Of a stretch of DNA of 50,819 nt, positions 4,513 through 24,980 are shown piece by piece. The stretch comes from Candidatus Bathyarchaeota archaeon (lineage in GTDB: Archaea > Thermoproteota > Bathyarchaeia > Bathyarchaeales > Bathycorpusculaceae). The stretch spans positions 15,266-66,084 of the forward strand of contig PKYH01000027.1 in assembly GCA_003133625.1 (NCBI GenBank), given 5' to 3'. The stretch's first letter is position 1; every line of letters begins with the position of its first letter. A model generated the notes under the pieces. That model was not told the origin of the DNA. It made no database searches and saw only the letters and a program-made list of their open reading frames with translations. A program made the translations under genes and the position numbers.

Positions 4513-4983
4513 TCATTTAGCTTGTTTAGCCAGCTTCTTTTCTTCCTTATACGAGTAAGCGCAATGTATACAGCAGAACGCTGTCTCCCTGCCATCGATG
4601 ATTTCTCGGTAGCCGCCTTCATAGACTTTGCACCCACAGTGGACGCAGACGTAGAGGCTTGGTTCAATAGCGATTGCTACTAGCTCGGCAAAGCGTTTGA
4701 AAAGACCAGTGCATAATTCTCTTCCTTCTTGTGTCAACTCATAAATTTTTCTTTCTTTTTCCCCTACTGGTTTTATTTTGTGTTTAACTAAGCCTTTTTC
4801 TTCTAGTTGCTGCAGGAACGGGTAAACTAGGCTTGGGCTCACTTCTTTTTTGACTCTTTTTTTGAATCTGCTTATTATGCTATAACCGTGTGTTGGTCCT
4901 TCGTAGAGTATTGTTAGTATATAGAAGCGTGAGAAGTCGGAGATTAATTCATCCATGTTTTCTGGTTTTGTATTGTTGGGCAT
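4513..4983 (-). CDS. PadR-family transcriptional regulator with a C-terminal Cys-rich (TRASH/YHS-like) metal-binding tail
   Basis: PadR winged-helix pattern YILTILYEGPTHGYSIISRFKK ... YPFLQQLEEKGLV. C-terminal CVHCGC...FCCIHC cysteine cluster. Confidence 0.8.
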   Translation of the reverse strand: MPNNTKPENMDELISDFSRFYILTILYEGPTHGYSIISRFKKRVKKEVSPSLVYPFLQQLEEKGLVKHKIKPVGEKERKIYELTQEGRELCTGLFKRFAELVAIAIEPSLYVCVHCGCKVYEGGYREIIDGRETAFCCIHCAYSYKEEKKLAKQAK

Positions 4984-7358: not shown

Positions 7359-7901
7359 ATGAAAATGAGCGAGAAAAACGATGTATATTCAGACGTAAAA
7401 GGTCAAATGCGCCTTTCTGAGCGCATAGCCGCGTTCATTCCAGGTTTCCACGGCTACAAAGAAAAGGAACTGCGCCGAGAAAGCGACAAGCTAATCAGGA
7501 ATCACCTGTACCTGAAACTGTCCATTGAAAAGACCGATCTAAGGGAAATTTCGCAGAAGTTGGCTGACCGCCGCTACTTCGACGTCTTGACCGATATGGA
7601 TCGCCTATTAGCTAAGATGGATCGCGTCGTTGAGAAAGTTAATCATGCGTCTTACGGGTACAGCGGCTTTTTTGACGCTGTTAAAGTCAGAGAGGAAAAC
7701 CTTGACCGTATGATAGATTTCGATAATCAGCTTCTAGAAGGCATAAACGCATTGGCTACTGAAATCGACGCTTTTAAAGCGGAATTAGCCAGCGGCGTAA
7801 CTGCGAACCTGAAGACCCGGGTTCAGAATGTAACCGACAAGCTTGAAAGTTTAGAGGACACGTTTGATAAACGTGAAGAAGTAATCTTAGGAGCGAGTTA
7901 A
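7359..7901 (+). CDS. coiled-coil / helical hypothetical protein
   Basis: 180 aa, charged and helical-looking with heptad-like stretches. Its stop abuts the start of the SPFH gene (7903). Confidence 0.55.
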   Translation: MKMSEKNDVYSDVKGQMRLSERIAAFIPGFHGYKEKELRRESDKLIRNHLYLKLSIEKTDLREISQKLADRRYFDVLTDMDRLLAKMDRVVEKVNHASYGYSGFFDAVKVREENLDRMIDFDNQLLEGINALATEIDAFKAELASGVTANLKTRVQNVTDKLESLEDTFDKREEVILGAS

Positions 7902-7902
7902 C

Positions 7903-8889
7903 ATGCCACAAGTAATAGAATGGACAAACGCTGGCCCAGAGGACGTAATTTGGAGGTACCCAAACGAAGACATTACATGGGGCGCCCAACTTATCGTGCA
8001 TGAGTATGAAATGGCAGTGTTCTTCAGGGACGGCAAAGCCTACGACGTTTTCAATGCTGGCAGGCACACGCTGACAACGTTGAATTTGCCTTTGCTTACA
8101 GGTTTGCTGACGCGTCTGGCAGGGTTCGGTAGCAACAAGCCGTTTAAAGCGGCAGTCCTCTTCATCGCCACTAAAGTTTTCAATGGCAAATGGGGTACAA
8201 GTGCACAAACCACTGAGTTGGCTCCACTCAAAGTGTTTGGGCAATTCCTGTTCAAAATCGAAGATGCTTCGCTGTTTGTGAACGAAGTCGTCGGTGGACA
8301 AAACGCTTACACAACGGAAGACGTTAACAACTTCCTACGAGGTTTCCTTAACGAAAAGATAATTGGAGAACTTTCCCACTACGACTTGATCACGGTCTTC
8401 ACTAGGCTTCAAGAGACATCCGTGATCGTTAAAAACTCGGTCTTAGATTACTTCAAACGCGTGGGCATCGAGCTAACAGACTTACGTTTCGAAGGCATCG
8501 ACACCACACCTGAGTACCGTGAACGGCTGTTTTGGCTTAAAACTGGAAGCACCCCAGCAGACACAGTCTTGCGCATGGAAACGGTGAAGAGCGCAGCGCG
8601 GTCTCTAGGTCAATCAGGCGGTGGCGGCGGAGCAGGCTTAGGCACGGGCATGGTGCTCATACCTCAAATTATGAATCAGCAAGGTCAGGTTCAGGCACAA
8701 GCACCCACAGCTGCACTAGTGATTTGCCCCAAATGCAGCGCGCATGTTCCAGCTACATCAAAGTTCTGTCCAGAATGCGGAACTTCTCTTACGCCTCCCT
8801 CAGCCGCCACAATGAACTGTCCCAAATGCGGCCACTCAATTCCTGCGAGCTCCAAGTTCTGCCCCGAATGCGGTGCAACACTATCGTAG
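7903..8889 (+). CDS. SPFH/band-7 family protein with two C-terminal zinc ribbons (COG4260 / YdjI-like)
   Basis: N-terminal IEWTNAGPEDVIWRYPNEDITWGAQLIVHEYEMAVFFRDGK is typical of the YdjI-like SPFH branch. A Gly-rich linker follows, then two CPKC...CPECG ribbons. Confidence 0.8.
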   Translation: MPQVIEWTNAGPEDVIWRYPNEDITWGAQLIVHEYEMAVFFRDGKAYDVFNAGRHTLTTLNLPLLTGLLTRLAGFGSNKPFKAAVLFIATKVFNGKWGTSAQTTELAPLKVFGQFLFKIEDASLFVNEVVGGQNAYTTEDVNNFLRGFLNEKIIGELSHYDLITVFTRLQETSVIVKNSVLDYFKRVGIELTDLRFEGIDTTPEYRERLFWLKTGSTPADTVLRMETVKSAARSLGQSGGGGGAGLGTGMVLIPQIMNQQGQVQAQAPTAALVICPKCSAHVPATSKFCPECGTSLTPPSAATMNCPKCGHSIPASSKFCPECGATLS

Positions 8890-8901
8890 GATGGCATAGC
8901 A

Positions 8902-9249
8902 ATGTCTGAAAGCAGACGGCAACTGCTCTCAATAGGCGTTTTCTTCATAATCGCGGTAGTCGCCATACTTCTCTATGCGGCGAAGGTGTTCGCAGACTGG
9001 CTGAATATTTTCCCTTTAATCTTCGTTCTGTTTGGAGCATGGCTACTAATCCTCGCCGCCATCAGAGCTCAAAGCCCGCAGAAATACGAACGCGAGCCAT
9101 TCGGCACACTGGAAATGGGCGTGATTCTCATGGCTTTAGGCGGTGCTTGGTTCCTGTTCAGGACAAGCGCTCTTTACTCGTTAGCTTTGATACTGCTTGT
9201 GCTCGGCGCCATAGCCATCGTTGCAGCCCTGAGACGAAAGAAACCTTGA
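8902..9249 (+). CDS. small integral membrane protein (3-4 TM helices)
   Basis: 115 aa, almost entirely hydrophobic helices, basic C-terminus RRKKP. Lies 12 nt after the SPFH gene. Confidence 0.6.
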   Translation: MSESRRQLLSIGVFFIIAVVAILLYAAKVFADWLNIFPLIFVLFGAWLLILAAIRAQSPQKYEREPFGTLEMGVILMALGGAWFLFRTSALYSLALILLVLGAIAIVAALRRKKP

Positions 9250-9315
9250 GCCTTTTTTCTGCTCTAAACATTTTTTTATCTCAATGCACAGTCATGATGC
9301 AGAAGGCAAGCAGTT

Positions 9316-10917
9316 ATGAGTGAAGAGACTGTTGGACGCGGCACATGGTACGACATGATGGCCAAGAAAGTAATTGAAAGAGAGCGTCAGCTAGGCAGAA
9401 ACATGGATAAAATCAGGACTGAGATGGGTCTTGGCGCCTCAGGTTTCCCTCATATTGGAAGCTTGGGCGACGCCGCACGCTCGTACGCCGTTACGCTTGC
9501 TTTGAAGGGTTTAGGTTTTAATTCTGAGTTGGTTGCTTACTGCGACGACAAGGACGGCTTGCGAAAAGTTCCGGTTGGATTATCAAAGGATTTAGAGAAG
9601 TATCTTGGTTTTCCAGTGTCCAGTATTCCTGACCCGTTTGGTTGCCATGAAAGCTACGGCAAGCATATGAGCTTGCTTCTGCTTGAATCTCTAGATAAGT
9701 GCGGAATAGAATATCGCTACTTTTCAGCTAAGGAAGTCTACGAGAAAGGCTTGCTGCTAAACGAAATCAGAACAATACTCTTAAACGCAAAGAAAGTAGG
9801 CGAAATTGTCAAAGAAGAAGTCGGTCAAGAACGCTACACAGAAGTCCTGCCCTTTTTCCCAGTCTGCAGCAACTGCGGACGCATCTACACCACAAAAGCC
9901 TTCAAGTTCGAGCCAAAAACTGATAAAGTTCTCTACAAATGCGAAGGCCTAGAAATCCGAGGCAGATTAATCGAAGGCTGTGGGCACGAAGGCGAAACCG
10001 ACATAACTAAAGGTGAAGGAAAACTAACGTGGAAAGGCGAGTTTGCCGCGCGTTGGAAAGCCTTGGATATTCGGTTTGAAGCTTACGGAAAAGACATTGC
10101 TGACTCAGTAAAAATCAACGATAGAATATGCCGTGAAGTCCTGTGTTTTGAGTCGCCATCACACGCTAAGTACGAGATGTTTCTAGATAAGGGTGGAAAG
10201 AAAATTTCCAAATCAGCAGGCAACGTTTTCACTCCGCAAGTGTGGTTCCGTTATGGTTCTCCTCAATCGCTGCTTTTGCTGATGCTTAAGCGGTTTGTTG
10301 GCACACGCACTTTAGATGTGTCGGATATTCCAGCGTACATGAACGAGCTTGATTACTTAGAGGACGTTTACTTTGGCAAAAAACAAGTGGGCGACAAAGA
10401 AGCCACGAAGCTTAGAGGCTTGCTTGAGTACTGCTATGTCATGAAGCCACCAGCTAAACCAAGCATTCACGTGCCCTACAATTTAATGGCATTTCTGGTT
10501 AAGATGGCGCCAAAAGAGTGCCTAAACGATTATGTGACTGAGAAACTGCAAAGTTACGGTTACCTCCAGAAAAACCAAAACTTAGACGCCAGCTTAATGA
10601 AGCGTATTGACTACGCTTTGAATTGGACTAGGGACTTTGAAGAAATCAAAGAAACCGTCATAACTCTGACAGACGAAGAGAAAAAAGCAATCACCGAGTT
10701 AATCTCAAAATTGGAAGCTGAAAATGAGCCGGATAAAATCCAAAATGCCATCTTTAACGCTGCCAAAAACAACGGTTTACAGCCCAGCGGCTTCTTCAAA
10801 ATGCTCTATAATATTTTGATGGGTGCACCGCAGGGTCCACGTTTAGGTCCATACGTGCTTGCCATGGGCAAACAAAACGTCATCGCCGCACTGCAAAGAG
10901 TCTTAAGCAAAAGTTAG
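9316..10917 (+). CDS. lysK: lysyl-tRNA synthetase, class I
   Basis: HIGH-like FPHIGSLGD and KMSKS-like KISKSAGN motifs. 533 aa and overall class I LysRS layout, including a Cys cluster (CSNCG ... CEG ... GCGH). Confidence 0.9.
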   Translation: MSEETVGRGTWYDMMAKKVIERERQLGRNMDKIRTEMGLGASGFPHIGSLGDAARSYAVTLALKGLGFNSELVAYCDDKDGLRKVPVGLSKDLEKYLGFPVSSIPDPFGCHESYGKHMSLLLLESLDKCGIEYRYFSAKEVYEKGLLLNEIRTILLNAKKVGEIVKEEVGQERYTEVLPFFPVCSNCGRIYTTKAFKFEPKTDKVLYKCEGLEIRGRLIEGCGHEGETDITKGEGKLTWKGEFAARWKALDIRFEAYGKDIADSVKINDRICREVLCFESPSHAKYEMFLDKGGKKISKSAGNVFTPQVWFRYGSPQSLLLLMLKRFVGTRTLDVSDIPAYMNELDYLEDVYFGKKQVGDKEATKLRGLLEYCYVMKPPAKPSIHVPYNLMAFLVKMAPKECLNDYVTEKLQSYGYLQKNQNLDASLMKRIDYALNWTRDFEEIKETVITLTDEEKKAITELISKLEAENEPDKIQNAIFNAAKNNGLQPSGFFKMLYNILMGAPQGPRLGPYVLAMGKQNVIAALQRVLSKS

Positions 10918-11044
10918 CTGTTTTCAGCAATTCTTTTATTTTATAAAAAACGAAAAAAGAGTTTACAATACAGGGGGTTGGATTTGAACCCCATCCTCGG
11001 TGGCGGCGTCTCTCGCTCATTTTTTTGTTTTGCGAATAAATTAT

Positions 11045-11599
11045 TTAGCCTCGTAAGTTTAGAGGTTTTTTGAATATTTCTTCTCGCCACTTGTGTTCCC
11101 AACTTGCCCAACCGGTCTTCACGAGGCTTTCTCTCAAGCGCGGTCTTTCGGCTACCCACTCCAGAAACGTCCAGAAGCGTCTCTCATCTTGAAGTATTTC
11201 CTTCGGCACGCCTTTTTCAACGCACCATCTAATATAGCCGCTTTCAACCATCTGCTTAAGTTCGCCTGTGGATTCGACTTTTTGAACTTTGAACCCTCTG
11301 CTTTGCAAGTGCCCAATTACGCTGGATAAAACGTATTCTGAACAAACCTTAAAACAGGTTTCTGAGTCAGGCTGCATGACTGCGACGATTTCATCGGCAA
11401 TCTTTACCGCGTCATCTAAGTATTTCTTGTTTTTGAAGTTTGGCGGCTGGAAGGATGATGTGGGGATTCTGCGTTCCATCACCATGGGGTCTGGGGGTTT
11501 AAGCGCGCCTACTACCACGCCTAATAAGAGGTCGCTCCATCCTGAAGCATCTATTAAAATCGTTTTTCCAGAAAAGTAACCGTCCAATGCCAAGCTCAA
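11045..11599 (-). CDS. hypothetical protein
   Basis: 184-aa ORF with normal globular composition. No motif recognised. Confidence 0.5.
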   Translation of the reverse strand: MSLALDGYFSGKTILIDASGWSDLLLGVVVGALKPPDPMVMERRIPTSSFQPPNFKNKKYLDDAVKIADEIVAVMQPDSETCFKVCSEYVLSSVIGHLQSRGFKVQKVESTGELKQMVESGYIRWCVEKGVPKEILQDERRFWTFLEWVAERPRLRESLVKTGWASWEHKWREEIFKKPLNLRG

Positions 11600-11989: not shown

Positions 11990-12058
11990 CGGGGCTCGTC
12001 GTCTAGTACGGATTATGACACCGGCCTGCTTTTTTGGTTCGTTTTCTATTTCAGTCAT
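11990..12058 (-). pseudogene. Int(N) stub: first 23 codons of the element integrase, separated from the rest by integration
   Basis: MTEIENEPKK-QAGVIIRTRRRAP. The last 13 residues are att-encoded and identical to residues 9-21 of the 24009..24962 ORF. After the repeat the frame runs into unrelated flank sequence (ORF 11804..12058). Confidence 0.8.
11991..12029 (+). repeat. attL: orphan copy of the 5' half of tRNA-Arg(GCG)
   Basis: GGGGCTCGTCGTCTAGTACGGATTATGACACCGGCCTGC is identical to 24901-24939. Identity stops on both sides (11990 c vs 24900 g; 12030 t vs 24940 g). No tRNA 3' half follows. Confidence 0.9.
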
Positions 12059-14476: not shown

Positions 14477-14806
14477 TTACCTCAATCTCCTCTTCACCAT
14501 TTAATTCATTTTGATAAGCTAATAAAACTTGCGTCAATTGTCAAGGAATAGCCCGAATTCTCGCATTAAAGCTGTGTTTGAGGAGGATTCCGCTTTTCTG
14601 GAGATAATACTGTCCATAATATGCAAATGTGGTTTGAAAACAGCAAAAATCCCCTATACTATCTATATGGGAAAAAATGATTTTGGCTTCGCTCCACCTA
14701 TGGGAAACGTTTGACGAATCTGCCCTTTGTATAAAGGTTGAACCCCCAAACCCAAATCAGAAGCATATGGGGTAAAGCGCTTAAAAAAGAACGCAAATAG
14801 AAACAA

Positions 14807-15580
14807 TTAGATTGTAACGCCGTTACTGTGTGCAAATGTTATGATGTCGGTTGATGGTATCCAAATTGAAATAGCGAATCTATCGGTTTGACGCTGTCCT
14901 GTTGTTGGGTGTTTTGCTTGTTGCTTTAGTTCATGTCTCAATCGTTGTCTTCTTTGTTGCCTTGTTTCCCCCATTGTCTGTTGTTGAGGTTGTGGGTTTT
15001 CCGTGATTGACCTATTATGAAGCCCAAAAACAGTGCCGTTTGCTAAGAATCCTGGGCATCCGCTTGAACCTTGGTACATTAAGGCATCAGTTTCATAAAA
15101 GGATAAAACTCTTCCCGAAGGTGTAAGGTCCGCATTGAAAGAAGAAACAAAAGCTCCCTGAAAGCGTATGAAAAGATGGAAACCAGAAGAATCGACCTTA
15201 GCAAGAGGGAAACCTAACGACCCGCAACTCGTTCCAATCTGAATAGTGTTAGTTGCAAGAGCAAGACTTTGAGTAGACCGTGGATTGGTTATTCTTAGAA
15301 GCGCTAAGTCTCTGTCAGCGTCTTCAGCTATTAATTGTGCTATCTCCAATTTTTGTCCAACATCAGGTGCCCTAATAACTCCGAATAGTTGATGTATGGG
15401 GTTGTTGAAGTTGCCTTCTTTATGTATTACGTGGGCTGCTGTTACCACAACACCTGGCGAAATCATAAAAGCGGTACCATTGCTACAAACACCGCCAGTC
15501 CCGACTTTAGTGTCACATCTTATTCCGTAAACACTTTCACGGACTGTTGAACAAGCTTGTTGAAACATAAATTTAACCAA
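14807..15580 (-). CDS. trypsin-like (S1/chymotrypsin fold) serine protease, no signal peptide, Q/R-rich C-terminal tail
   Basis: Triad in canonical order: VVTAAHV (His), RDLALLRI (Asp), QGSSGCPGF (Ser). The tail is NPQPQQQTMGETRQQRRQRLRHELKQQ. Confidence 0.75.
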   Translation of the reverse strand: MVKFMFQQACSTVRESVYGIRCDTKVGTGGVCSNGTAFMISPGVVVTAAHVIHKEGNFNNPIHQLFGVIRAPDVGQKLEIAQLIAEDADRDLALLRITNPRSTQSLALATNTIQIGTSCGSLGFPLAKVDSSGFHLFIRFQGAFVSSFNADLTPSGRVLSFYETDALMYQGSSGCPGFLANGTVFGLHNRSITENPQPQQQTMGETRQQRRQRLRHELKQQAKHPTTGQRQTDRFAISIWIPSTDIITFAHSNGVTI

Positions 15581-16596
15581 ATCAATCCGTTAGTTGAATT
15601 GTTTTTTAAATTTTTGCCTAATTACGTTTCTTTTAGGTTAAACCTATTCTCGATTGCCATTCTTTCTTTTCATCTCTTGATTGCTGACAAGTATGAGCAT
15701 CCTTGGAATCTCACATCCCCCAAAACACAAAAAATCCCCTATATACTATAAAGGGGAAAATACTGTTTTAAGTCGACTGATGACTTTAGCTTTGAACCCC
15801 TATCTTGGATATTATTAATTGGGTGCACAGAGTCCCCGTAAATCCATTTGCGTCCATTTGCTTGCTCTAATTCTTCAAATGCAAAATTTGAGAAAAGTTA
15901 TTGTTTTGCGTAAACTGTAGCCTATTTTTTTGCAAGCATTACTCAATTTTTAACATAAAAACCTCAATTGTGTAAAAAAGTTGCCCTTTTCAACGGTTTT
16001 CCATGAAAATCACGTAACATCCTTTCAGCCATAATGGTTATATCTCGAATCTTGAGTGTTCCATAACATTGCCCGTTCAAGAATGAATGGGACACATGTA
16101 AACGAGGGGACTGAACTTGGTGGCAGTTACACTATGATTAGCCTTGACTCCGCATGTTTCCAACTCGTTCTAATCGGTAAAGAAAAAATGGAGGGAGCAC
16201 AAAACGGAAATAAAATTAGCCGAGAAAAAAGGTCAAGCATATAGTAAATACTATGTTGTTTTAGACCGAAATGGCGACCTTAGTGTATTAGAAGTTAGTC
16301 AAGATGACTGGTCAATTCTAACAATGGTTGAAGTAATGTACAGCAGGCGATTAATTAAACTTGAAACTAAGAAGCAGGTCGTGCAAGAAATATTACACAC
16401 GTTCCTCAAGACCAACTACAGCTCAGATGCAGTAATACAATACAAACTTGAGTATTTAGGGGATTAAGCGCACTGAACATTTGCAATTTAACACAGATTC
16501 TATAGAGGGACTCCTAAACCGAGAAGAGTTTCACTGATGAAATGATGAAATCTCGATTTGCGAAGCACTCATAAAATCAAAAGGAGATATATAAAA

Positions 16597-16812
16597 ATGG
16601 AAAAATTGGATAAAAATGAAATAAACGTCGGCTTCATAGTCCAACTGGATGAGGATGACTGGCGAGAATTAGAATCTATTATAAAAAATAAAGTGAAACG
16701 GCTAATCTTCGTTAAGAAATGCCCAATCACTGTTAAACTGGAAATTAAAGAGAATTTTCCAACAAGGAAGGGAGAAAATGTCACAAAGTTTTGCAACTGG
16801 GAATCCGCTTGA
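16597..16812 (+). CDS. small hypothetical protein (71 aa from ATG 16597)
   Basis: AAGGAG lies 10-15 nt upstream of ATG 16597. Overlaps the start of the next ORF by 35 nt, consistent with coupling. No family recognised. Confidence 0.4.
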   Translation: MEKLDKNEINVGFIVQLDEDDWRELESIIKNKVKRLIFVKKCPITVKLEIKENFPTRKGENVTKFCNWESA

Positions 16813-18028
16813 ACTGGCTAAGCAAATCGGCTATGAACTCTATGATAATATTGGTAAAATTGCTTTTGAAGAACTTGAGCTGGCTTATGCAAGCAGATTA
16901 GCACCTAAATTTGAAAAAGTACCAGAATTGCGTAGTTTCACTAACCTGAATTTCTATTGGGCAAGAGGTTGTTTCAAAAACAGGAGTATAGAAGGATTTA
17001 AAGATTGCTTACCTGAAGATTTCAAACAGAGAAATATTTCAACCGCAACAATTGAGACAATGTTTGGCAGCATAAATGAAAAAGGTAATAAACTCTTTGC
17101 TCCGCTGTTCCATGGATATGAGACATGCTTTATGCCTGAACTGTTAGCATTCTTAGGTAGTTATGAAACCATGAAAGAGAAAGTCAATACTTTCAATGAA
17201 GTTTTAGAAGGCGACCCAACATCAAGAGATATGATAAAATTCAGCAGTGCAAGCGAAGAACTTATTGGAAAATATATGTTGGGTTATGATGGTTTAACTT
17301 TTGATGGCAGACATTTGAAATATGAACCAAACACATCATTTGTAGTTGGCACTCGACCAGTAGAAAATAAAATATACACTTACCTTGAGCAATCAGGATT
17401 CTGGAGCAGATTTCATACAATACAAATAAAGATTACTGATAAAGTTTCAGAGGATATCTTCACGGGCAGTTTCACACCAAACCCAGATGTTGATGTGCAA
17501 AGCCTTAAAAATGAGCTTAAGCTCTGCAATAAAAATCTTTTTGCGCATAGAGATGATATAAATTCTGAACTGCCAAGTTACGAAAAAATAATGATGCCTT
17601 TACTTCAAACAGCTAATGGTTTTTGCAAACAAGTTATGTTGAAAAATCCAATAATTGACAACGTGACCCTATTAAATGTGCGTATTAAAGATGACATACT
17701 TCGAGAAGTCAAAGCTTATCAAATTTTAAATCCTGAGTTAAGCGATGCTGAAATTCATGCGTGGGCTTATGCAAGACTGCCGCATTTCTTTGAATTTGCA
17801 ACTGAACCAATCATAGCCAGAGAAATCACATTTGTTAAAGTAAACTCATTGGAATCTTGCATTAAATCTCTTTGCGAACTCTGCAAGGGTTCACCAAAAG
17901 AACGCGATGAAATACAAGACATACTGCAAAAACAAAGCTTTTCAAGACCAACAATAGACCGAGCAATGGAAAAAATCAAAGAAAACGGACTTGAAAAAAC
18001 CCAAAAACGTGGAGTGTATGAAACATAG
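16778..18028 (+). CDS. orphan 416-aa protein with a C-terminal winged-helix-like segment; candidate replication/partition protein of the element
   Basis: GGGAG lies before the ATG. The long ORF has globular composition. The C-terminal stretch SRPTIDRAMEKIKENGLEKTQKRGVYE looks like a wHTH. Followed immediately by an iteron-like repeat cluster. The function is an inference only. Confidence 0.6.
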   Translation: MSQSFATGNPLELAKQIGYELYDNIGKIAFEELELAYASRLAPKFEKVPELRSFTNLNFYWARGCFKNRSIEGFKDCLPEDFKQRNISTATIETMFGSINEKGNKLFAPLFHGYETCFMPELLAFLGSYETMKEKVNTFNEVLEGDPTSRDMIKFSSASEELIGKYMLGYDGLTFDGRHLKYEPNTSFVVGTRPVENKIYTYLEQSGFWSRFHTIQIKITDKVSEDIFTGSFTPNPDVDVQSLKNELKLCNKNLFAHRDDINSELPSYEKIMMPLLQTANGFCKQVMLKNPIIDNVTLLNVRIKDDILREVKAYQILNPELSDAEIHAWAYARLPHFFEFATEPIIAREITFVKVNSLESCIKSLCELCKGSPKERDEIQDILQKQSFSRPTIDRAMEKIKENGLEKTQKRGVYET

Positions 18029-18224: not shown

Positions 18225-18470
18225 TTGAAAAAACAAAAACTGTGTAAAATCTGCAACCATGAGCTTGCACCAGCAATTCTCTATCTGCATCTCTTTGAAG
18301 GTTATTCATATAAGAGAATCATCGCAGCCTACGGAAGCTTTATCCCAAATTTGAATTTGTACAATATTTCAAACCACTTAAATTATCATATTTCCATCAG
18401 AGATATCAAAGAGGCAGAAGCTACCAAAGCACGCTGGGAGAAATACAAAGCTCAAGAAGCAGCCGCTTGA
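18225..18470 (+). CDS. small Cys/His-containing hypothetical protein (81 aa)
   Basis: TTG start. CKIC ... HLNYH could form a zinc site. Basic C-terminal helix. A 6-bp hairpin (18481-18497) lies just past the stop. Confidence 0.45.
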   Translation: MKKQKLCKICNHELAPAILYLHLFEGYSYKRIIAAYGSFIPNLNLYNISNHLNYHISIRDIKEAEATKARWEKYKAQEAAA

Positions 18471-19361: not shown

Positions 19362-20228
19362 TCACGCTATCTTTTTCAATGAAAAGTGTCCTTTCGTTTT
19401 TTCATCAATAATATCGCCTGAAATTTCACTGGCACTTTTTGACAACATTCCTGAAAGTGCATCAAGATTATATTCATTAGCGGCTCCCTGCTTTACAAAA
19501 GTATATGAAACACCTTGTAACATCACGAAGAAGTCTTGTATTGTGCCCATCATTGATTCTTGCACGATAGCCATACCTTTATCCGTTGAATAACAGACTA
19601 TCATAGTTCCCGATATTTCAGAACCTTTTTGGGAAAGGTCAATCTTTATTTCGTATTTATCATCCTCCAAAATCATGTCTCCTTCCCAGATACCGGCTAT
19701 ATTTTGTATATTTTTTACAACTTTAGATGGAGTTGATTCTTTCTGTTTATAGGGGTTTATCCCTGTAACTGCAATACCCTCAAAGACTGTGCCATATTCG
19801 GTTTCTTTCAATACGCTTTGAATCATTTCTGTAAGATTGCTTTTTAGATTGTCGCCCCAAGCAGGATTATTAATGTCATAGTAGAGATACCTTAGAGCTT
19901 TCAGGTCAAACGGGACATCCTTCTCATTGCGGGTAATGATAATGGCGGGTTTACCAAGTGCATGGGCAAGTCCGAGTTCATAGAACACATTTATATTTTT
20001 GCCGGACAGTTCTGCAATAACCATCCTTGAAGACCTTAAGGCTTTCCAAATGTCGGCAGTAACTTGAGGTTTAGAATAAATCTCGTCAGCTCTTACACAC
20101 TTTAGTCCAGCCAATTCAATTGCTGGACGTATTATACTACTATATTCTGAATCAAAAACAGAACTAAACGGCATAATAACAAAACAAGTATCTTTTAAAT
20201 CTCCGAGCTCAATCTCTACCTTTGCCAT
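19362..20228 (-). CDS. nucleoside 2-deoxyribosyltransferase / TIR-like Rossmannoid domain protein with an unknown C-terminal domain
   Basis: N-terminal about 140 aa: CFVIMPF ... VRADEI ... VIAELSGKNINVFYELGLAHALGKPAIIIT. This matches the (D/N)xG/NxxxE-LG-xA-xAxGKP core of deoxyribosyltransferase/deoxyribohydrolase-like folds. The C-terminal about 130 aa looks beta-rich and is unassigned. Confidence 0.6.
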   Translation of the reverse strand: MAKVEIELGDLKDTCFVIMPFSSVFDSEYSSIIRPAIELAGLKCVRADEIYSKPQVTADIWKALRSSRMVIAELSGKNINVFYELGLAHALGKPAIIITRNEKDVPFDLKALRYLYYDINNPAWGDNLKSNLTEMIQSVLKETEYGTVFEGIAVTGINPYKQKESTPSKVVKNIQNIAGIWEGDMILEDDKYEIKIDLSQKGSEISGTMIVCYSTDKGMAIVQESMMGTIQDFFVMLQGVSYTFVKQGAANEYNLDALSGMLSKSASEISGDIIDEKTKGHFSLKKIA

Positions 20229-20398
20229 CTAAATCAATTCCCTCTCGAACGCATTGCTATCAATTGTAAGCAAATAGCAGAAAAGGCTTTCGATGACACT
20301 TGCAACAGCGAGCTTAAAAAATTGGGCAAGTCATCATGTTTTTCACCTTTAGCGTTATGACGTTTTCTTCGTTGTCAACATCTTGTATTAAGTTTTTA

Positions 20399-20462
20399 AA
20401 ATTGGTGCTCTACCAAATTGGTGCTCGGAAATCCACTTCTCTCTGAAAAGTAGCACCAAATT
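20399..20462. promoter_or_regulatory. candidate operator: three copies of the 11-mer AAATTGGTGCT (two direct, one inverted) next to a TTTTTAAAA TATA-like box
   Basis: AAATTGGTGCT at 20399-20409 and 20415-20425. AGCACCAAATT at 20452-20462. Ends 11 nt before the AbrB-like ATG (20474). Confidence 0.55.
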
Positions 20463-20473
20463 AGGTTCACAAC

Positions 20474-20659
20474 ATGATAGAGAGCGAAGGCAAATTCATT
20501 AATCGACCAACACAGACGGGCGGAAAAACCTATGATAAATTCTTCATTTATGTTCCAACGGAAGTTGCAAGAGACAGCTTGTTCCCTTTTAAGACAAACG
20601 ATAGAATCAAAGTCAAGATTGATGTTGAGAATAAAAAGCTCACAATAGAGAAGATATAG
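20474..20659 (+). CDS. AbrB/SpoVT-like small DNA-binding protein
   Basis: 61 aa. FIYVPTEVARDSLFPFKTNDRIKVKIDVENKKLTIEK resembles the swapped-hairpin AbrB/MazE pattern (IPKEIR..LGL..GD.V.I....G.I.I.K). Confidence 0.5.
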   Translation: MIESEGKFINRPTQTGGKTYDKFFIYVPTEVARDSLFPFKTNDRIKVKIDVENKKLTIEKI

Positions 20660-20722
20660 AGTAAGACGTTACTTGATAGTCAAGAATATAGTTTCTTTGG
20701 GCACATTAATGCAACAAAGCGT

Positions 20723-21577
20723 TTAACAGTTGCATTTTTCTATCCATTTTTTAATTTCCGCTTTTAGAGCATCCATTGATTCTTTAGGCCAATTTGGGTC
20801 ATTTTCGCAAATCCTAAGTGCTTGTTCAAAATTTTCTCTGGCAATTTCTTTTTTTCCAAGCTCCAAGTTAATTAGACCTAACCATAAAAAATGATTATAA
20901 TGCCCAGTTGAGTCAAACTGTGCTAAGAATTCACAATAACGTTTGGTAGTATCTACGTCTTTATGTTGGTCATAATAACGTATAAGCGAGTAAAGGCATT
21001 GTCTTACATTCTCTCGAATTAGTATTAATTCATGTTCGGTTCGTGGGCAATCAGGCAACTGTTTTACGTAACCATCGCCTTTGAATGTAGGTTGCCCTCT
21101 AAATAGCTCTATTGAAGCCTTGTCATCTTTGATTTTCGTGATAAAGCTTTCGTTCTTATCTTTTCCTTTTTCTAAAATATTTGACCTGTCAAATGTTAAA
21201 TAGAGTGAATCTGTATCCGTTTTAAATATTCTTTCCAAGAGCTCATATCTATGGTCTTCGATAGACATCCAATAACAATTTCCGCTTGGTTCATCATATA
21301 CGATAAGGTAGACAGGGTTTGGTTCCCATAACCAATATACCAATGTTGATTTCTTTATGCTTGCACTCCAATTGTCATCAAAATGTTCTGTTCCTTTTGC
21401 TTGTATGTAGAACTCATTTGTTGGAGAGCTATTCTCTAATAATTGGCAATAAAAATCAAGTCCTACGTCATCTTCAATTTTAGTTACCAAGGAAAAATAA
21501 GATAAGCGACCTTTTATTTCGCTTTCACCCACTTTGCCTAATCGTTGCTCCCACGTAAATCTCACATTACGCACCAT
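20723..21577 (-). CDS. DUF4365-like (PD-(D/E)xK nuclease fold) N-terminal domain fused to a TPR-like C-terminal domain
   Basis: GKVGESEIKGRLSYF...EDDVGLDFYCQL....EFYIQAKGT matches the G.xGE...D.GxD...(V/I)Q.K(G/A)T pattern of DUF4365. The C-terminus has TPR-like helices (WLGLINLELGKKEIARENFEQALRI). Confidence 0.6.
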   Translation of the reverse strand: MVRNVRFTWEQRLGKVGESEIKGRLSYFSLVTKIEDDVGLDFYCQLLENSSPTNEFYIQAKGTEHFDDNWSASIKKSTLVYWLWEPNPVYLIVYDEPSGNCYWMSIEDHRYELLERIFKTDTDSLYLTFDRSNILEKGKDKNESFITKIKDDKASIELFRGQPTFKGDGYVKQLPDCPRTEHELILIRENVRQCLYSLIRYYDQHKDVDTTKRYCEFLAQFDSTGHYNHFLWLGLINLELGKKEIARENFEQALRICENDPNWPKESMDALKAEIKKWIEKCNC

Positions 21578-21700
21578 TAGAAGTACCCACTGCAGAGATT
21601 ATTCGATTAATAGTTAAAAATTTATGGCAAAATAACCAGATACTCTAAGTTCTTTGGTCTACCAGCGAGCGTTGTCAAGGTATGCCTAATTCGCGCTCGT

Positions 21701-21925
21701 TTATTTTTTATTATTCGTTTTGTCTTTGGGGTAGACTATCTTCATTTTGTTTGGGTTATGATTGCGACAGAAATAAAGCCAAAAATCACCATGTTCCACA
21801 ATGAGTTCTGCTCTTTGTCCACATGTGGGTATGTCGCAAAAAGCTTTCGGTAAATCCCTTATAACCTCATCATAAGAACTTGTTTTAGGTCTAACCATTA
21901 ACACACTCTCAGTATTACCATACAA
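21701..21925 (-). CDS. small Cys/His-containing hypothetical protein
   Basis: 74 aa. CDIPTCGQ ... FCRNH may form a zinc-ribbon-type site. Same strand as the DUF4365-like gene and 123 nt upstream of it. Confidence 0.4.
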   Translation of the reverse strand: MYGNTESVLMVRPKTSSYDEVIRDLPKAFCDIPTCGQRAELIVEHGDFWLYFCRNHNPNKMKIVYPKDKTNNKK

Positions 21926-22050: not shown

Positions 22051-22122
22051 CTATTTGCGCTTTCTAAACAGCTTAATGCCTTCCATTTCTGTGACGTACT
22101 CGAAGCCTTGCTCAATGAGCTT
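22051..22122 (-). pseudogene. relic of a second integrase gene (last 23 codons only)
   Basis: The reverse strand reads KLIEQGFEYVTEMEGIKLFRKRK*. The intact integrase ends KLIEQGFEYVTEMDSIKLFRKRK*, so 21 of 23 residues are identical, with an estimated 70 percent nt identity. An in-frame TAA lies immediately upstream. Confidence 0.75.
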
Positions 22123-22194: not shown

Positions 22195-22773
22195 ATGGAA
22201 TTTATAATAAAGAATAGTCGCATCGTTGAAGATATAATAGGAAAAAACACAGAATTTCCAAAATACACAACGCAAATCATGAATTTGGCTAACCAGAACG
22301 CTCAAGGAACGAGACCTAAAGTAGTAGGTCAAATGTCTGATTTAATTGAGGAATGCCCCAAAGGAACCTATGAACAGTGGGTCAACTGGTATTCCCAAAG
22401 GATGCCTCAAGCAGTGGATGAGGCAACCGAAAAAGTATTTGAAATGATTCGGAATCTTGCATCCGCAATCACACTAATCGATAAGGAACTTGTAAGGAAA
22501 TGGGTCGAAGACTTGGTCTTAACTAAAACTTTTACAGGTTTCTGTTTTCAAGAAAGCATTCTAAAAGCGGTCGCCAAAAGAAAATGGGTTCAATACCGAA
22601 GGTCTACTCCGGAAGAAGAATCAAAATTTATTGACGGATACATCGGCGATATTCCCGTCTCAATTAAGCCCGTCACATACAAGACCAAAGGTATGTTACA
22701 CGAAAACATCAATGTCAAACTTATCTATTATGAGAAACTAAAAGATGGAATTAGGGTCGAATACGACTTCTAA
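22195..22773 (+). CDS. putative type II restriction endonuclease (possibly MjaI-like family)
   Basis: Convergent with the methyltransferase, with overlapping stop codons. Possible PD-(D/E)xK-like segment IDGYIGDIPVSIKP. The N-terminal FPKYTTQIMNLANQNAQGTRPKVVGQ recalls small archaeal REases, but that is from memory and unverified. Confidence 0.55.
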   Translation: MEFIIKNSRIVEDIIGKNTEFPKYTTQIMNLANQNAQGTRPKVVGQMSDLIEECPKGTYEQWVNWYSQRMPQAVDEATEKVFEMIRNLASAITLIDKELVRKWVEDLVLTKTFTGFCFQESILKAVAKRKWVQYRRSTPEEESKFIDGYIGDIPVSIKPVTYKTKGMLHENINVKLIYYEKLKDGIRVEYDF

Positions 22774-23882
22774 TCTGAGTCTAACCAATCCTTGAGTGAT
22801 TTCCCCTTTTGAGTTAGACTTCCTCCATCAAATTTAAAGGAAGGCTTTTCCTCATATTCAGCTTCAATTGTATCATCCTTAGACAGTACTCTTCTAAGTT
22901 CATCAAACGTAATTTCTACTTCTTGACTTGTCATCACTGGAAAACCGTAAACTTTGCTCGCATATTTCAATTCACCTTTCACTTTAGTGCGTTCTTGAAC
23001 AAATTTTAGGTGATTTATCATTCTATTTCTTAACAAATTATTGGAAAAACTAACAATATCCTTGAACCTCTCAGAAAGATGCTCACTGAAGTTAGGGTCT
23101 ATCTCAATTCCCACACTGTTTCTTCCAGTAGCAATTGAAGCTAAGGTTGTGGTTCCTGTGCCAAGAAATGGGTCGAGTACTGTGTCTTCTCTGAGAGAAA
23201 ACATGTTAATCAAACGATAGGCAAGCTCGAACGGATAAGCTCCACTGCGCTCTCTAATCTTTTTGTCAAGGTCTGTCTGTCGGGTTCCCTTAAGACCTTC
23301 CCACACATCTGAAAACCAGACATTTCGCTCTTCCCAAAAGAATGAGCTTTTTTGTCTTCTCAGTTTATCTTCTATTTTGACAAACTCTCTTTTAGTTCCT
23401 TTTCGCAAAACCAGAATATACTCATGCTCTAAAGTAATGTATGCACCTGCGGGAAGCATACCCGACCCCATGAACTTGTTGGGAGCATTCGTTTGTTTTC
23501 TCCATAAAATTTCAGGCAAAGAACTAAAGCCCAAGTTCAAACAGCTTTGCAGTATTCTTGAGTGATTGGAATAGAGTTTGAACTCTTTTCCTATTTTTCG
23601 AGTTGCGTCACCAATGTTGATGCATGCAATTCCACCTTGGCGAAGGACCCTATAGACTTCTTTCCAGATTTTATCAAGCTCTTGGTTCATTAATTCGTAC
23701 GCTTGATTTCCATCTTCATTTCTTAATGCTTCGCCTATTCTGGGATTTTGTTTGGAGAAAATGTCATCCCACATTTCAATCATTGGATAAGGTGGCGAAG
23801 TAATCATCAAATCTATAGATTGGTCTTTAATCTGCTTCATTTCGTTGGAGTTGCTGAAAAATATCTTGTGAGTAGTTTTCAT
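22770..23882 (-). CDS. DNA methyltransferase, beta-class N4/N6 (SPPY motif suggests N4-cytosine)
   Basis: Motif IV DLMITSPPYP precedes motif I VLDPFLGTGTTTLAS (beta permutation). Also has the N6_N4_Mtase-like GGIACINIGD segment. Confidence 0.9.
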   Translation of the reverse strand: MKTTHKIFFSNSNEMKQIKDQSIDLMITSPPYPMIEMWDDIFSKQNPRIGEALRNEDGNQAYELMNQELDKIWKEVYRVLRQGGIACINIGDATRKIGKEFKLYSNHSRILQSCLNLGFSSLPEILWRKQTNAPNKFMGSGMLPAGAYITLEHEYILVLRKGTKREFVKIEDKLRRQKSSFFWEERNVWFSDVWEGLKGTRQTDLDKKIRERSGAYPFELAYRLINMFSLREDTVLDPFLGTGTTTLASIATGRNSVGIEIDPNFSEHLSERFKDIVSFSNNLLRNRMINHLKFVQERTKVKGELKYASKVYGFPVMTSQEVEITFDELRRVLSKDDTIEAEYEEKPSFKFDGGSLTQKGKSLKDWLDSD

Positions 23883-24008: not shown

Positions 24009-24962
24009 TCATTTCCGTTTCCTAAATAGCTTGATTGAATCCATCTCAGTAACATATTCGAAACCTTGCTCTATGAGTTTCTGCGCTTCCTTGATATTTT
24101 GGGCTACTTTGCAGGTGTATTCTTCTTCGCTGTCGAAGTGTATTAGCTGTGCGTAGAATAGTGTAGTTTCGTATTTTGTGTGTCCCATTTGTTGCATAGT
24201 GAAAAACATATCTTTGGTTTTGTCATAGGTGAGGGTTGCGAATTTGTGTCTAAGATTTCTTAGCGGTATTTTTTTAAGTTCTGGTTGCTGTAGTTTGTCG
24301 GCTAATTCGTTTCTGGTTCTCATCCATATTTCGCTCATGTAGTGTGTTTCTGGGAATGGTTGATTATCGGTGTATTTGTTTAGGTAGTGTCTTAACATTT
24401 CTGCGGTTTCTGGTTTTAGTTTGAATGAACGTGATTTGTGTCCTTTGCATCCTTGAGCGTTAATTATTCCTTTTTCTATGTCTATGTCTTTTTGTGTTAT
24501 GTTTCTTAGTTCTTGTTCCTCTAATCCTGTTTCGTCTAAGATTCTAAAAATAGTTGCGTATTTTTTGGATGAGGCTGATATTATTTTATTGACGTTTTCG
24601 CTTGATGGTATTAGCGGGATTTTTCTTTGATATTTAAAGTGTGTTTCTAATCGTTGGAGTCCATTTACGTCTGTGAAATAATTGTATGCTTTTACCATTT
24701 GTTGCTTGTAGCTGTTGGCTTGTGTCATTGTTGCGATAAACGCTTTGACTTGTTCGGGTTTCATTAGGTCGGTGTTTTTGTCTAAGTATTTTAGTTGGTA
24801 GTTGACTGCTCGTAGTGTTCCTTGTTCTAATCCGTTGCTTTTCATTGTGAGTAAGGTTTTTATGATTTCAGGTTCGTATTTGTAGCATAATACGGTGCTG
24901 GGGGCTCGTCGTCTAGTACGGATTATGACACCGGCCTGCGGAGCCGGAGGTCCTGGGTTCAA
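24009..24962 (-). CDS. int: tyrosine recombinase / integrase, SSV-type, Int(C) part
   Basis: C-terminal catalytic region NLRHKFATLTY ... MGHTKYETTLFYAQL (R-H ... GH ... Y). Residues 9-21 (QAGVIIRTRRRAP) are encoded antisense to the att repeat. Residues 1-8 are encoded antisense to the tRNA 3' half, so they are fortuitous. Confidence 0.85.
   Translation of the reverse strand: MNPGPPAPQAGVIIRTRRRAPSTVLCYKYEPEIIKTLLTMKSNGLEQGTLRAVNYQLKYLDKNTDLMKPEQVKAFIATMTQANSYKQQMVKAYNYFTDVNGLQRLETHFKYQRKIPLIPSSENVNKIISASSKKYATIFRILDETGLEEQELRNITQKDIDIEKGIINAQGCKGHKSRSFKLKPETAEMLRHYLNKYTDNQPFPETHYMSEIWMRTRNELADKLQQPELKKIPLRNLRHKFATLTYDKTKDMFFTMQQMGHTKYETTLFYAQLIHFDSEEEYTCKVAQNIKEAQKLIEQGFEYVTEMDSIKLFRKRK
24901..24939 (+). 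repeat. attR: repeat copy embedded in the intact tRNA-Arg gene
   Basis: Identical to 11991-12029. Confidence 0.9.
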
Positions 24963-24980
24963 ATCCCAGCGGGCCCGCCA
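24902..24980 (+). tRNA. tRNA-Arg (anticodon GCG) with encoded CCA
   Basis: Folded by hand. Acceptor GGGCTCG/CGGGCCC with one G-U pair. Anticodon stem CCGGC/GCCGG, loop CTGCGGA (anticodon GCG at 24938-24940). Variable loop AGGTC. T arm CTGGG-TTCAAAT-CCCAG. Discriminator G plus CCA. The D arm is less regular. Confidence 0.85.

Follow-up and report, generated by a model that had tools for sequence, protein, structure and literature searches.

Four neighbouring genes (genes 1 to 4) on an integrated mobile element of an archaeon are described. The element lies in a stretch of 50,819 nucleotides from Candidatus Bathyarchaeota archaeon (GenBank assembly GCA_003133625.1, contig PKYH01000027.1, positions 15,266 to 66,084 of the forward strand), which at its full length is called the window. 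It is 12.9 kb in size, carries all four genes and is integrated into the tRNA-Arg gene of a Bathyarchaeia genome. The four-gene block is probably not a multi-gene system but a mosaic: its genes would be independent cargo of the half of the element nearest the integrase, and two of them are self-contained, each joining an effector enzyme to a putative sensor. These two, gene 1 (nucleoside 2-deoxyribosyltransferase (NDT)-like domain and beta-barrel) and gene 3 (DUF4365 nuclease domain and tetratricopeptide-like (TPR-like) helical domain), are separate, undescribed variants of known effector kinds. Neither fusion was found in PADLOC 2.0 or in the literature searched. A first-pass annotation of the window had listed the same four reading frames, and all are present in place and on strand. 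It had found no named defence system that fits them; PADLOC agrees, giving no match to a whole named system.

That annotation left open whether one system or several independent genes are present, a question that neighbourhood and profile co-occurrence analysis settles in favour of independence. The analysis covers all loci outside this element (about 185), which were searched with genes 1 to 3 by tblastn and hidden Markov models and with gene 4 by tblastn. Gene 1 contributes 84 loci (four hand-inspected contexts and 80 genome loci) and gene 3 another 84. Gene 2 relatives are absent from all of the approximately 185 loci. Gene 4 relatives are absent from the loci of the gene 1 and gene 3 families and present solely in their own two. 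Relatives of genes 1, 2 and 4 are all missing from the 84 gene 3 loci. When the 1,153 reading frames of the 84 gene 1 loci are clustered all against all, no neighbour family is shared apart from gene 1 itself. Gene 1 and gene 3 relatives meet in a single locus (L076, described below). All four genes stand together solely in copies of this element. A single four-gene system is rejected on this analysis.

Gene 1 encodes a DrHyd/NDT-type N-glycosidase by prediction, with the residues equivalent to those of DNPH1 retained. The protein carries CFVIMPF and NVFYELGLAHALGKPAIIIT and aligns with rat Rcl/DNPH1 over the catalytic YELG motif; the family profile retrieves the rat protein with an E value of 2e-5. 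In the alignment D59 corresponds to D69, E73 to E82 and E84 to the nucleophile E93 of Rcl. Residue N78 presumably corresponds to Rcl S87. The glutamate of YELG, which the first-pass annotation had marked for checking, is intact (E84) and invariant in 47 relatives. The N-terminal domain is strikingly conserved in the same relatives, and its other invariant residues include C15, F16, M19, F21, R46, D48, W61, E73, N80, Y83, G86, K93, D104 and D108; D59 is kept in at least 90%. Each of the 47 aligned relatives matches PF05014 weakly (best E 1e-5). The strongest library match of gene 1 is the PADLOC model 'Effector, TIR' PDLC00733 of CBASS (E 1.9e-12), a partial match in which residues 29-120 cover profile positions 263-357 of 388, the TIR-like part. 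The AlphaFold 2 model (pLDDT 85) consists of a Rossmannoid N-terminal domain (14-141), a disordered linker and an eight-strand beta-barrel. Foldseek matches of the N-terminal domain are DNPH1 (TM-score 0.6-0.74), NDT 6evs (0.60) and the SARM1 TIR domain (about 0.6). Model and Foldseek agree with the earlier call of an NDT/TIR-like fold joined to a beta-rich C-terminal domain. Assignment of the N-terminal domain to DUF4062 ('Swarozyc') is excluded, no Pfam match to it being obtained at E up to 1. An NCBIfam scan gave no match for any of the four proteins.

The C-terminal barrel of gene 1 is, in the predicted model, of a small-ligand-binding type. Its top Foldseek match in the PDB is the cyclic-dinucleotide receptor Cap15 (7n34; E 7e-5, TM-score 0.61). 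A BFVD search with gene 1 returns 'SMODS-associating 2TM beta-strand rich effector', the Cap15 class, for the barrel, and a siphovirus relative with 29% identity.

With 2,639 proteins at E ≤ 1e-3, the gene 1 family is a large one; nearly all of the matches listed are 270-336 amino acids long. Its enzyme module (residues 13-144) recurs at 46-52% identity in at least 570 species, across phyla and in both bacteria and archaea (genome scan). At least five fusion partners are observed: the C-terminal beta-barrel, an FGE-sulfatase domain, a Tudor-like domain, a helical tail and an N-terminal extension of about 200 amino acids. Four PHROG families without an assigned function match the module as well (best phrog_3634, E 1e-30). 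In the TIR-DrHyd-SLOG clade, shuffling of a catalytic module among partners together with horizontal spread is an established signature of conflict effectors (PMC9503650). By analogy, the gene 1 family, a conserved module shuffled among sensor-like partners and spread horizontally, bears this signature. The four contexts inspected by hand, Bathyarchaeota and Dehalococcoidia among them, all have the gene solo beside unrelated genes; one is another integrase-bearing island and one lies between mutS and ybeY. A prophage contig of IMG/VR (L106, 5908-6819) holds an enzyme-module relative with a helical tail, apparently as a moron; terminase genes lie on one side of it and a gene for a cell-wall hydrolase on the other. 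A full-length two-domain relative with 41% identity occurs in a cultured and experimentally tractable bacterium, Epilithonimonas lactis DSM 19921 (L033, 7992-8873).

Gene 3 encodes a DREN-type nuclease, to judge from its sequence, with the D-Q-K triad intact and TPR-like helices in the place of APAZ/Argonaute. DUF4365 (PF14280) is matched with 49 bits, the cut-off being 24.3. The AlphaFold 2 model (pLDDT 94.8) has a five-helix C-terminal domain. Structures of SPARDA DREN-APAZ are the top Foldseek matches (E 2e-6); for the C-terminal domain, TPR proteins and type III secretion chaperones come next. Of the DUF4365-TPR architecture given in the first-pass annotation, the DUF4365 part is upheld above cut-off, and the TPR-like part has the Foldseek matches and one sub-threshold motif. 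The nuclease residues, likewise marked for checking, are kept: D41, Q59 and K61 align with D41, Q60 and K62 of NbaSPARDA DREN, which are catalytic (PMC12205087). Within the family D41 is kept in at least 90% of members, and Q59 and K61 are invariant. Also invariant are C44, H226 and H229; C101 and H65 are kept in at least 90%. These five residues span the nuclease and TPR domains (HYNHF motif) and could form a metal site that links the two, as far as conservation indicates. The family has 137 full-length proteins at E ≤ 1e-3; their source is Bathyarchaeia wherever it is named, and the family appears largely confined to this class. Gene 3 has no PHROG match.

The genes and their domain content suggest, by analogy with known effectors, activities, triggers and a defence phenotype for both fusions. 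For gene 1, a small molecule, perhaps a nucleotide-derived signal or a metabolite derived from infection, would bind the barrel. Binding would switch on hydrolysis of the N-glycosidic bond in NAD(P)+ or a (deoxy)nucleotide, with cell arrest as the outcome. This mode is modelled on the TIR and NDT-like effectors of CBASS, Pycsar and Retron-Eco1. For gene 3, the TPR domain would bind an invader or partner protein and so bring about oligomerisation, which would activate DREN for non-specific cleavage of DNA or RNA. On its own, the DREN domain of SPARDA is an inactive monomer; assembly into tetramers by the Argonaute filament turns it into a collateral nuclease (PMC12205087). Oligomerisation mediated by TPR and induced by a target is inferred for gene 3 because TPR replaces APAZ/Argonaute and because the SPARDA nuclease is activated by tetramerisation.

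In its full form this reading is put forward tentatively and is itself rather doubtful. The gene 1 family would consist of orphan ligand-gated N-glycosidase immune effectors, in which a Cap15-like barrel or another sensor detects a signal or metabolite from an invader or an unlinked host enzyme and triggers destruction of NAD+ or nucleotides without a synthase gene devoted to it. For gene 3 the proposal is an Argonaute-independent switch for the SPARDA nuclease, which would work through protein recognition by TPR. The defence role of both fusions is suggested by their architecture and by the analogy with known effectors.

Several findings weigh against the main reading, that of independent cargo with two putative effector fusions. 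Gene 1 itself scores 19.3 bits against PF05014, below the Pfam gathering threshold of 28.8. After Cap15 the barrel matches nitrophorins, nitrobindin and lipocalins with near-equal scores, and its likeness to Cap15 is one of fold, with 11% identity and no match in a sequence-profile search. No signal synthase was found near gene 1 (84 gene 1 loci; the other genes of the element; 25 of the 56 Pfam families among the other window reading frames of at least 100 amino acids). Around 19 full-length relatives of gene 1, the adjoining genes mostly have housekeeping or metabolic functions and are defence-like in few cases, so that guilt by association is weak for this gene. The first-pass annotation had called the setting a classic defence island; this holds for the window, with its restriction-modification (R-M) genes and mobile element, and fails as a general statement for gene 1, whose full-length relatives stand mostly beside housekeeping genes. 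In gene 3 a single TPR motif is recognised by sequence (residues 232-260; E 8e-4, below cut-off). The tight linkage of gene 3 to an integrase may mean a role in the biology of the element itself.

A sanitising role for gene 1 is a live rival because of these housekeeping neighbours and because no signal synthase is linked. The protein would be a housekeeping or stress enzyme that removes unwanted nucleotides, like DNPH1, which acts on non-canonical deoxynucleoside monophosphates, or like the MilA/MilB-type CMP hydrolases, and its barrel would bind the substrate or an allosteric metabolite. DNPH1/Rcl provides the closest solved structures and the closest sequence-profile matches, a viral relative is annotated 'CMP/hydroxymethyl CMP hydrolase' in BFVD, and full-length relatives lie beside genes for proteins such as MutS, YbeY, MreB and LpxK. 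Against a sanitiser speak the patchy distribution, with high identity across phyla and domains of life, and an enzyme module fused promiscuously to FGE-sulfatase, Tudor-like, helical and beta-barrel partners. Copies occur on integrated elements and as a prophage moron, and the best library match is the model of a CBASS TIR-like effector. The phosphate-binding loop of DNPH1 is replaced in gene 1, presumably GSIRGG by IMPFSS, as the family alignment reads against the Rcl sequence. Sanitising is, on balance, unlikely as the function of gene 1.

Service to the mobile element, rather than antiviral defence of the host, is the corresponding alternative for gene 3 and is quite unlikely. The protein would exclude competitors, act as an addiction module or process DNA. 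A tyrosine integrase homologous to that of the window is the only recurrent neighbour among the 84 gene 3 loci (8 loci, the window included) and often adjoins the gene; in the window, genes 4 and 3 have the remnant of an integrase gene immediately upstream; and no gene 3 relative was found in the viral contigs of IMG/VR. Against this, many relatives occupy integrase-free loci, e.g. L019, between radical-SAM and OCD genes; positions near an integrase are typical cargo hotspots too; DREN is so far known solely as an immune effector; and keeping out rival elements would count as a conflict function too, by the same mechanism. The linkage fits cargo of integrative elements and also allows a role in competition between elements. 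A tRNA gene, the integrase and the DUF4365-TPR gene stand in a row in L112, L119 and L168. In L119 a 52-nucleotide direct repeat (2268-2319 and 4600-4651; 85% identical, with an internal palindrome) brackets the DUF4365-TPR homologue and an unrelated gene of 407 amino acids; the bracketed pair directly follows tRNA-Leu and the integrase.

That the four genes are one undescribed defence system of effector, regulator, nuclease-sensor and zinc-ribbon adaptor is very improbable: they adjoin one another on a single element and are identical across 16 metagenomic contigs, and an unrelated locus (L076) also has an NDT-like gene, a DUF4365 gene and type II R-M genes side by side, but all 16 contigs are copies of the same element, the other three genes are missing from the 84 gene 1 and 84 gene 3 loci, the L076 proteins differ in architecture and have no gene 2 or gene 4 relative beside them, gene 4 relatives occur in other contexts, and the genes lie on both strands with TATA-like sequences of their own. 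The L076 locus belongs to a metagenome-assembled genome of Thermodesulfovibrionales. Following glyQ, it has in a row an NDT-like gene, a gene for a DUF4365 protein of 318 amino acids, a methyltransferase gene and a small endonuclease-like gene (7407-11576). Its NDT-like protein is of the type with a long N-terminal extension and its DUF4365 protein differs from gene 3, so that the same three gene kinds as in the window are present in other architectures. This locus is read here as a second meeting of two island-dwelling gene kinds, not as a system.

The product of gene 2 most likely binds DNA as a small swapped-hairpin protein and would repress its own promoter through three repeats with the core TTGGTGCT. 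Autoregulation is the likeliest role because the repeats sit on its own promoter. The first-pass annotation had called the gene AbrB-like. Gene 2 itself has no match to PF04014 at E up to 1, which leaves the call weak and also counts against the reading given here; 13 of 51 relatives match that family weakly (best E 9e-5). The gene 2 family comprises 154 representative relatives of 45-336 amino acids, mostly 60-100, and its consensus FIYVPxxVAxDSxFPFKxGDxV resembles the swapped-hairpin pattern. Comparison of the family with one MazE sequence in hhalign gave no match and was uninformative. The operator was previously described as a triple 11-mer. It consists of two exact direct copies of AAATTGGTGCT (at 20399 and 20415) and of a third, inverted copy with one mismatch (20452-20462), and is better described as two direct copies and one imperfect inverted copy; all three share the exact 8-mer core. 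The first copy starts on the last base of the TATA-like sequence TTTTTAAAA. A role of gene 2 as antitoxin for gene 1 or gene 3 was considered and rejected, given the lack of co-occurrence in the loci analysed and the divergent or convergent orientation.

Gene 4 is a small Cys/His protein, as first annotated, with a revised start. The start is almost certainly Met10 (21898), since gene callers use it and all homologues begin with MVRPK. Residues C30, C35, C53 and H56 form a C2CH pattern, which is kept in the two homologues whose sequences were read. Five homologues occur outside this element's own cluster. The two contexts inspected differ, one homologue following an SDH-protease gene and the other a CAP12/PycTIR-type TIR gene. 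The latter, in a related archaeon (L025, 1998-4857), lies between the TIR gene (219 amino acids) and genes for two helical proteins (311 and 286 amino acids); this may be another small defence-like cluster.

The coordinates of the four genes, the putative operator and the other features of the element are given in Table 1.

Table 1. Features of the element and of its integration site, in window coordinates.
Feature	Position	Strand	Description and basis
Gene 1 (288 aa)	19362..20228	-	NDT/DNPH1-like (DrHyd superfamily) predicted N-glycosidase domain ~13-144, disordered linker, eight-stranded calycin/Cap15-like beta-barrel 179-286
Repeat set upstream of gene 2, putative operator	20399..20462	.	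Within the 245-bp spacer between gene 1 and gene 2
Gene 2 (61 aa), putative autoregulator	20474..20659	+	Weakly SpoVT/AbrB/MazE-like; divergent from gene 1
Gene 3 (284 aa)	20723..21577	-	DUF4365/DREN PD-(D/E)xK nuclease domain ~1-160 and TPR-like helical domain ~181-283
Gene 4, orphan C2CH zinc-ribbon-like protein	21701..21898	-	65 aa from Met10; TTG-initiated reading frame reaches 21925
Integrase remnant	22054..22122	-	Final 23 codons left of another integrase gene; window searched with the integrase by tblastn and blastn
MjaI-family type II restriction endonuclease	22195..22773	+	PF09568 (RE_MjaI) E 5e-66; PADLOC REase_II E 2.5e-69
N6/N4 DNA methyltransferase, partner of the endonuclease	22770..23882	-	PF01555 E 7e-41; PADLOC MTase_II E 5e-151
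Tyrosine integrase of the element	24009..24845	-	278 aa as called, reading frame extends to 24962; PF00589, phrog_1, gene calls
Left attachment-site copy	11991..12029	.	39-nt direct repeat, 5' half of tRNA-Arg; left border of the 12.9-kb element
Right attachment-site copy	24901-24939		39-nt exact direct repeat of 11991-12029
tRNA-Arg(GCG), integration target	24902..24980	+	ARAGORN and repeat search; first 38 bases inside the right attachment-site copy

The mobile element proposed in the first-pass annotation is borne out by the 39-nucleotide repeat, the tRNA-Arg gene and the tyrosine integrase. The genes flanking it are housekeeping genes: CofD, a PhoU-like protein, thermosome, class I LysRS, ribosomal protein S3Ae and thymidylate kinase. 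Source names in the CofD cluster assign the host to Candidatus Bathyarchaeia. The identical element, with the four genes together, is present on contigs from several metagenome samples (the 16 contigs mentioned above). A search for the empty integration site through the flanking PhoU-like gene returned only contigs that break at the attachment site; such breaks are expected from the 39-nucleotide repeat and are no evidence of excision. The adjacent R-M pair had also been called correctly. Both type II components are present, and their genes are adjacent with an overlap of 4 bp. The integrase remnant sits between the endonuclease gene and gene 4; it shares 91% protein identity and 76% DNA identity with the 3' end of the intact integrase gene, and points to a layered assembly of the element. 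The arrangement suggests that the R-M pair and the present integrase form a later layer, the older order being integrase, gene 4, gene 3.

The element holds further genes. A trypsin-like protease gene (14807-15580) matches the protease domains of the PADLOC models RT-Protease, LmuA and Avs1b. It has on either side a copy of a 48-nucleotide sequence (14637-14684 and 15722-15769; 75% identical), and the two copies look, by their layout, like cassette borders or shared regulatory elements. Genes 16778-18028 (416 amino acids) and 18225-18470 (81 amino acids) have no match in Pfam, NCBIfam, PADLOC or PHROGs. Among the loci fetched, and with no homologue search of a database made, relatives of both are confined to copies of this element; the two genes may serve its replication or maintenance.

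Should one or the other fusion prove to be an immune gene, it would add a compact single-protein system made of known immune parts (DREN nuclease, NDT/TIR-type glycosidases, Cap15-type barrel), each wired to a different sensor. The gene 1 family, large, spanning bacteria and archaea and absent from PADLOC 2.0, raises the question of which ligand is sensed by an effector that has no synthase encoded alongside. The gene 3 family, if the reading is true, would show control of DREN without Argonaute and would enlarge the so far very short list of defence candidates from Bathyarchaeia. Bathyarchaeia are an uncultured lineage abundant in sediments. The negative result has a use of its own: adjacency on one element beside an R-M pair is no evidence for a multi-gene system.

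In comparison with known systems, gene 1 shares with DNPH1/Rcl and the NDTs (PF05014, DrHyd) the fold, a GPF-like strand-1 motif (CFVIMPF) and residues D59, E73 and E84. It differs from them in scoring below the Pfam cut-off, in its other phosphate-binding loop, in the fused C-terminal barrel and in being a solo, horizontally spread gene. The enzyme domain matches the profile of the TIR-like effector of CBASS and Pycsar (PDLC00733, PF10137) in its TIR-like part alone. The NDT-like N-glycosidase of Retron-Eco1 (type II-A) hydrolyses NAD(P)+ (PMC7736814, PMC12673091), and gene 1 follows the logic of these TIR- and NDT-like effectors, in which recognition lies in a domain of its own that is joined to the N-glycosidase effector (PMC7736814, PMC12673091). 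Unlike CBASS, Pycsar and retrons, gene 1 is without a CD-NTase, cyclase or reverse transcriptase partner, and its partner domain is a beta-barrel, versus SAVED, CNB or a DNA-binding domain in the TIR- and NDT-like effectors. A reverse transcriptase is absent from the element and a conserved neighbour from the related loci, no RNA-family search having been made. Membership of gene 1 in CBASS, Pycsar or retrons was rejected, the loci searched having no synthase or reverse transcriptase partner. The closest structural counterpart of the gene 1 barrel is Cap15 (S-2TM-beta), whose own barrel detects cyclic dinucleotides that contain uracil (PMC10419184); the two have in common a minimal ligand-binding beta-barrel fold. 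In contrast to Cap15, gene 1 has a soluble NDT-like N-terminus in the place of two N-terminal transmembrane helices, and neither the sequence similarity nor the CBASS operon.

Gene 3 shares with SPARDA DREN-APAZ the DUF4365/DREN domain and the D-Q-K triad. It differs in having TPR-like helices for APAZ, in the absence of an Argonaute gene from the window and the 84 related loci, and in a family that appears largely bathyarchaeal; as a part of SPARDA it was rejected for want of APAZ and pAgo. Divona, a single-gene DUF4365 fusion of Vibrio chromosomal integron cassettes, is reported to be anti-phage (bioRxiv 10.1101/2024.07.02.601686). Compared by description, Divona and gene 3 both have a stand-alone N-terminal DUF4365 nuclease followed by a second domain. 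The second domain is crr6 in Divona and TPR in gene 3; the former gene is carried in a bacterial integron cassette, the latter as cargo of an archaeal element integrated into a tRNA gene.

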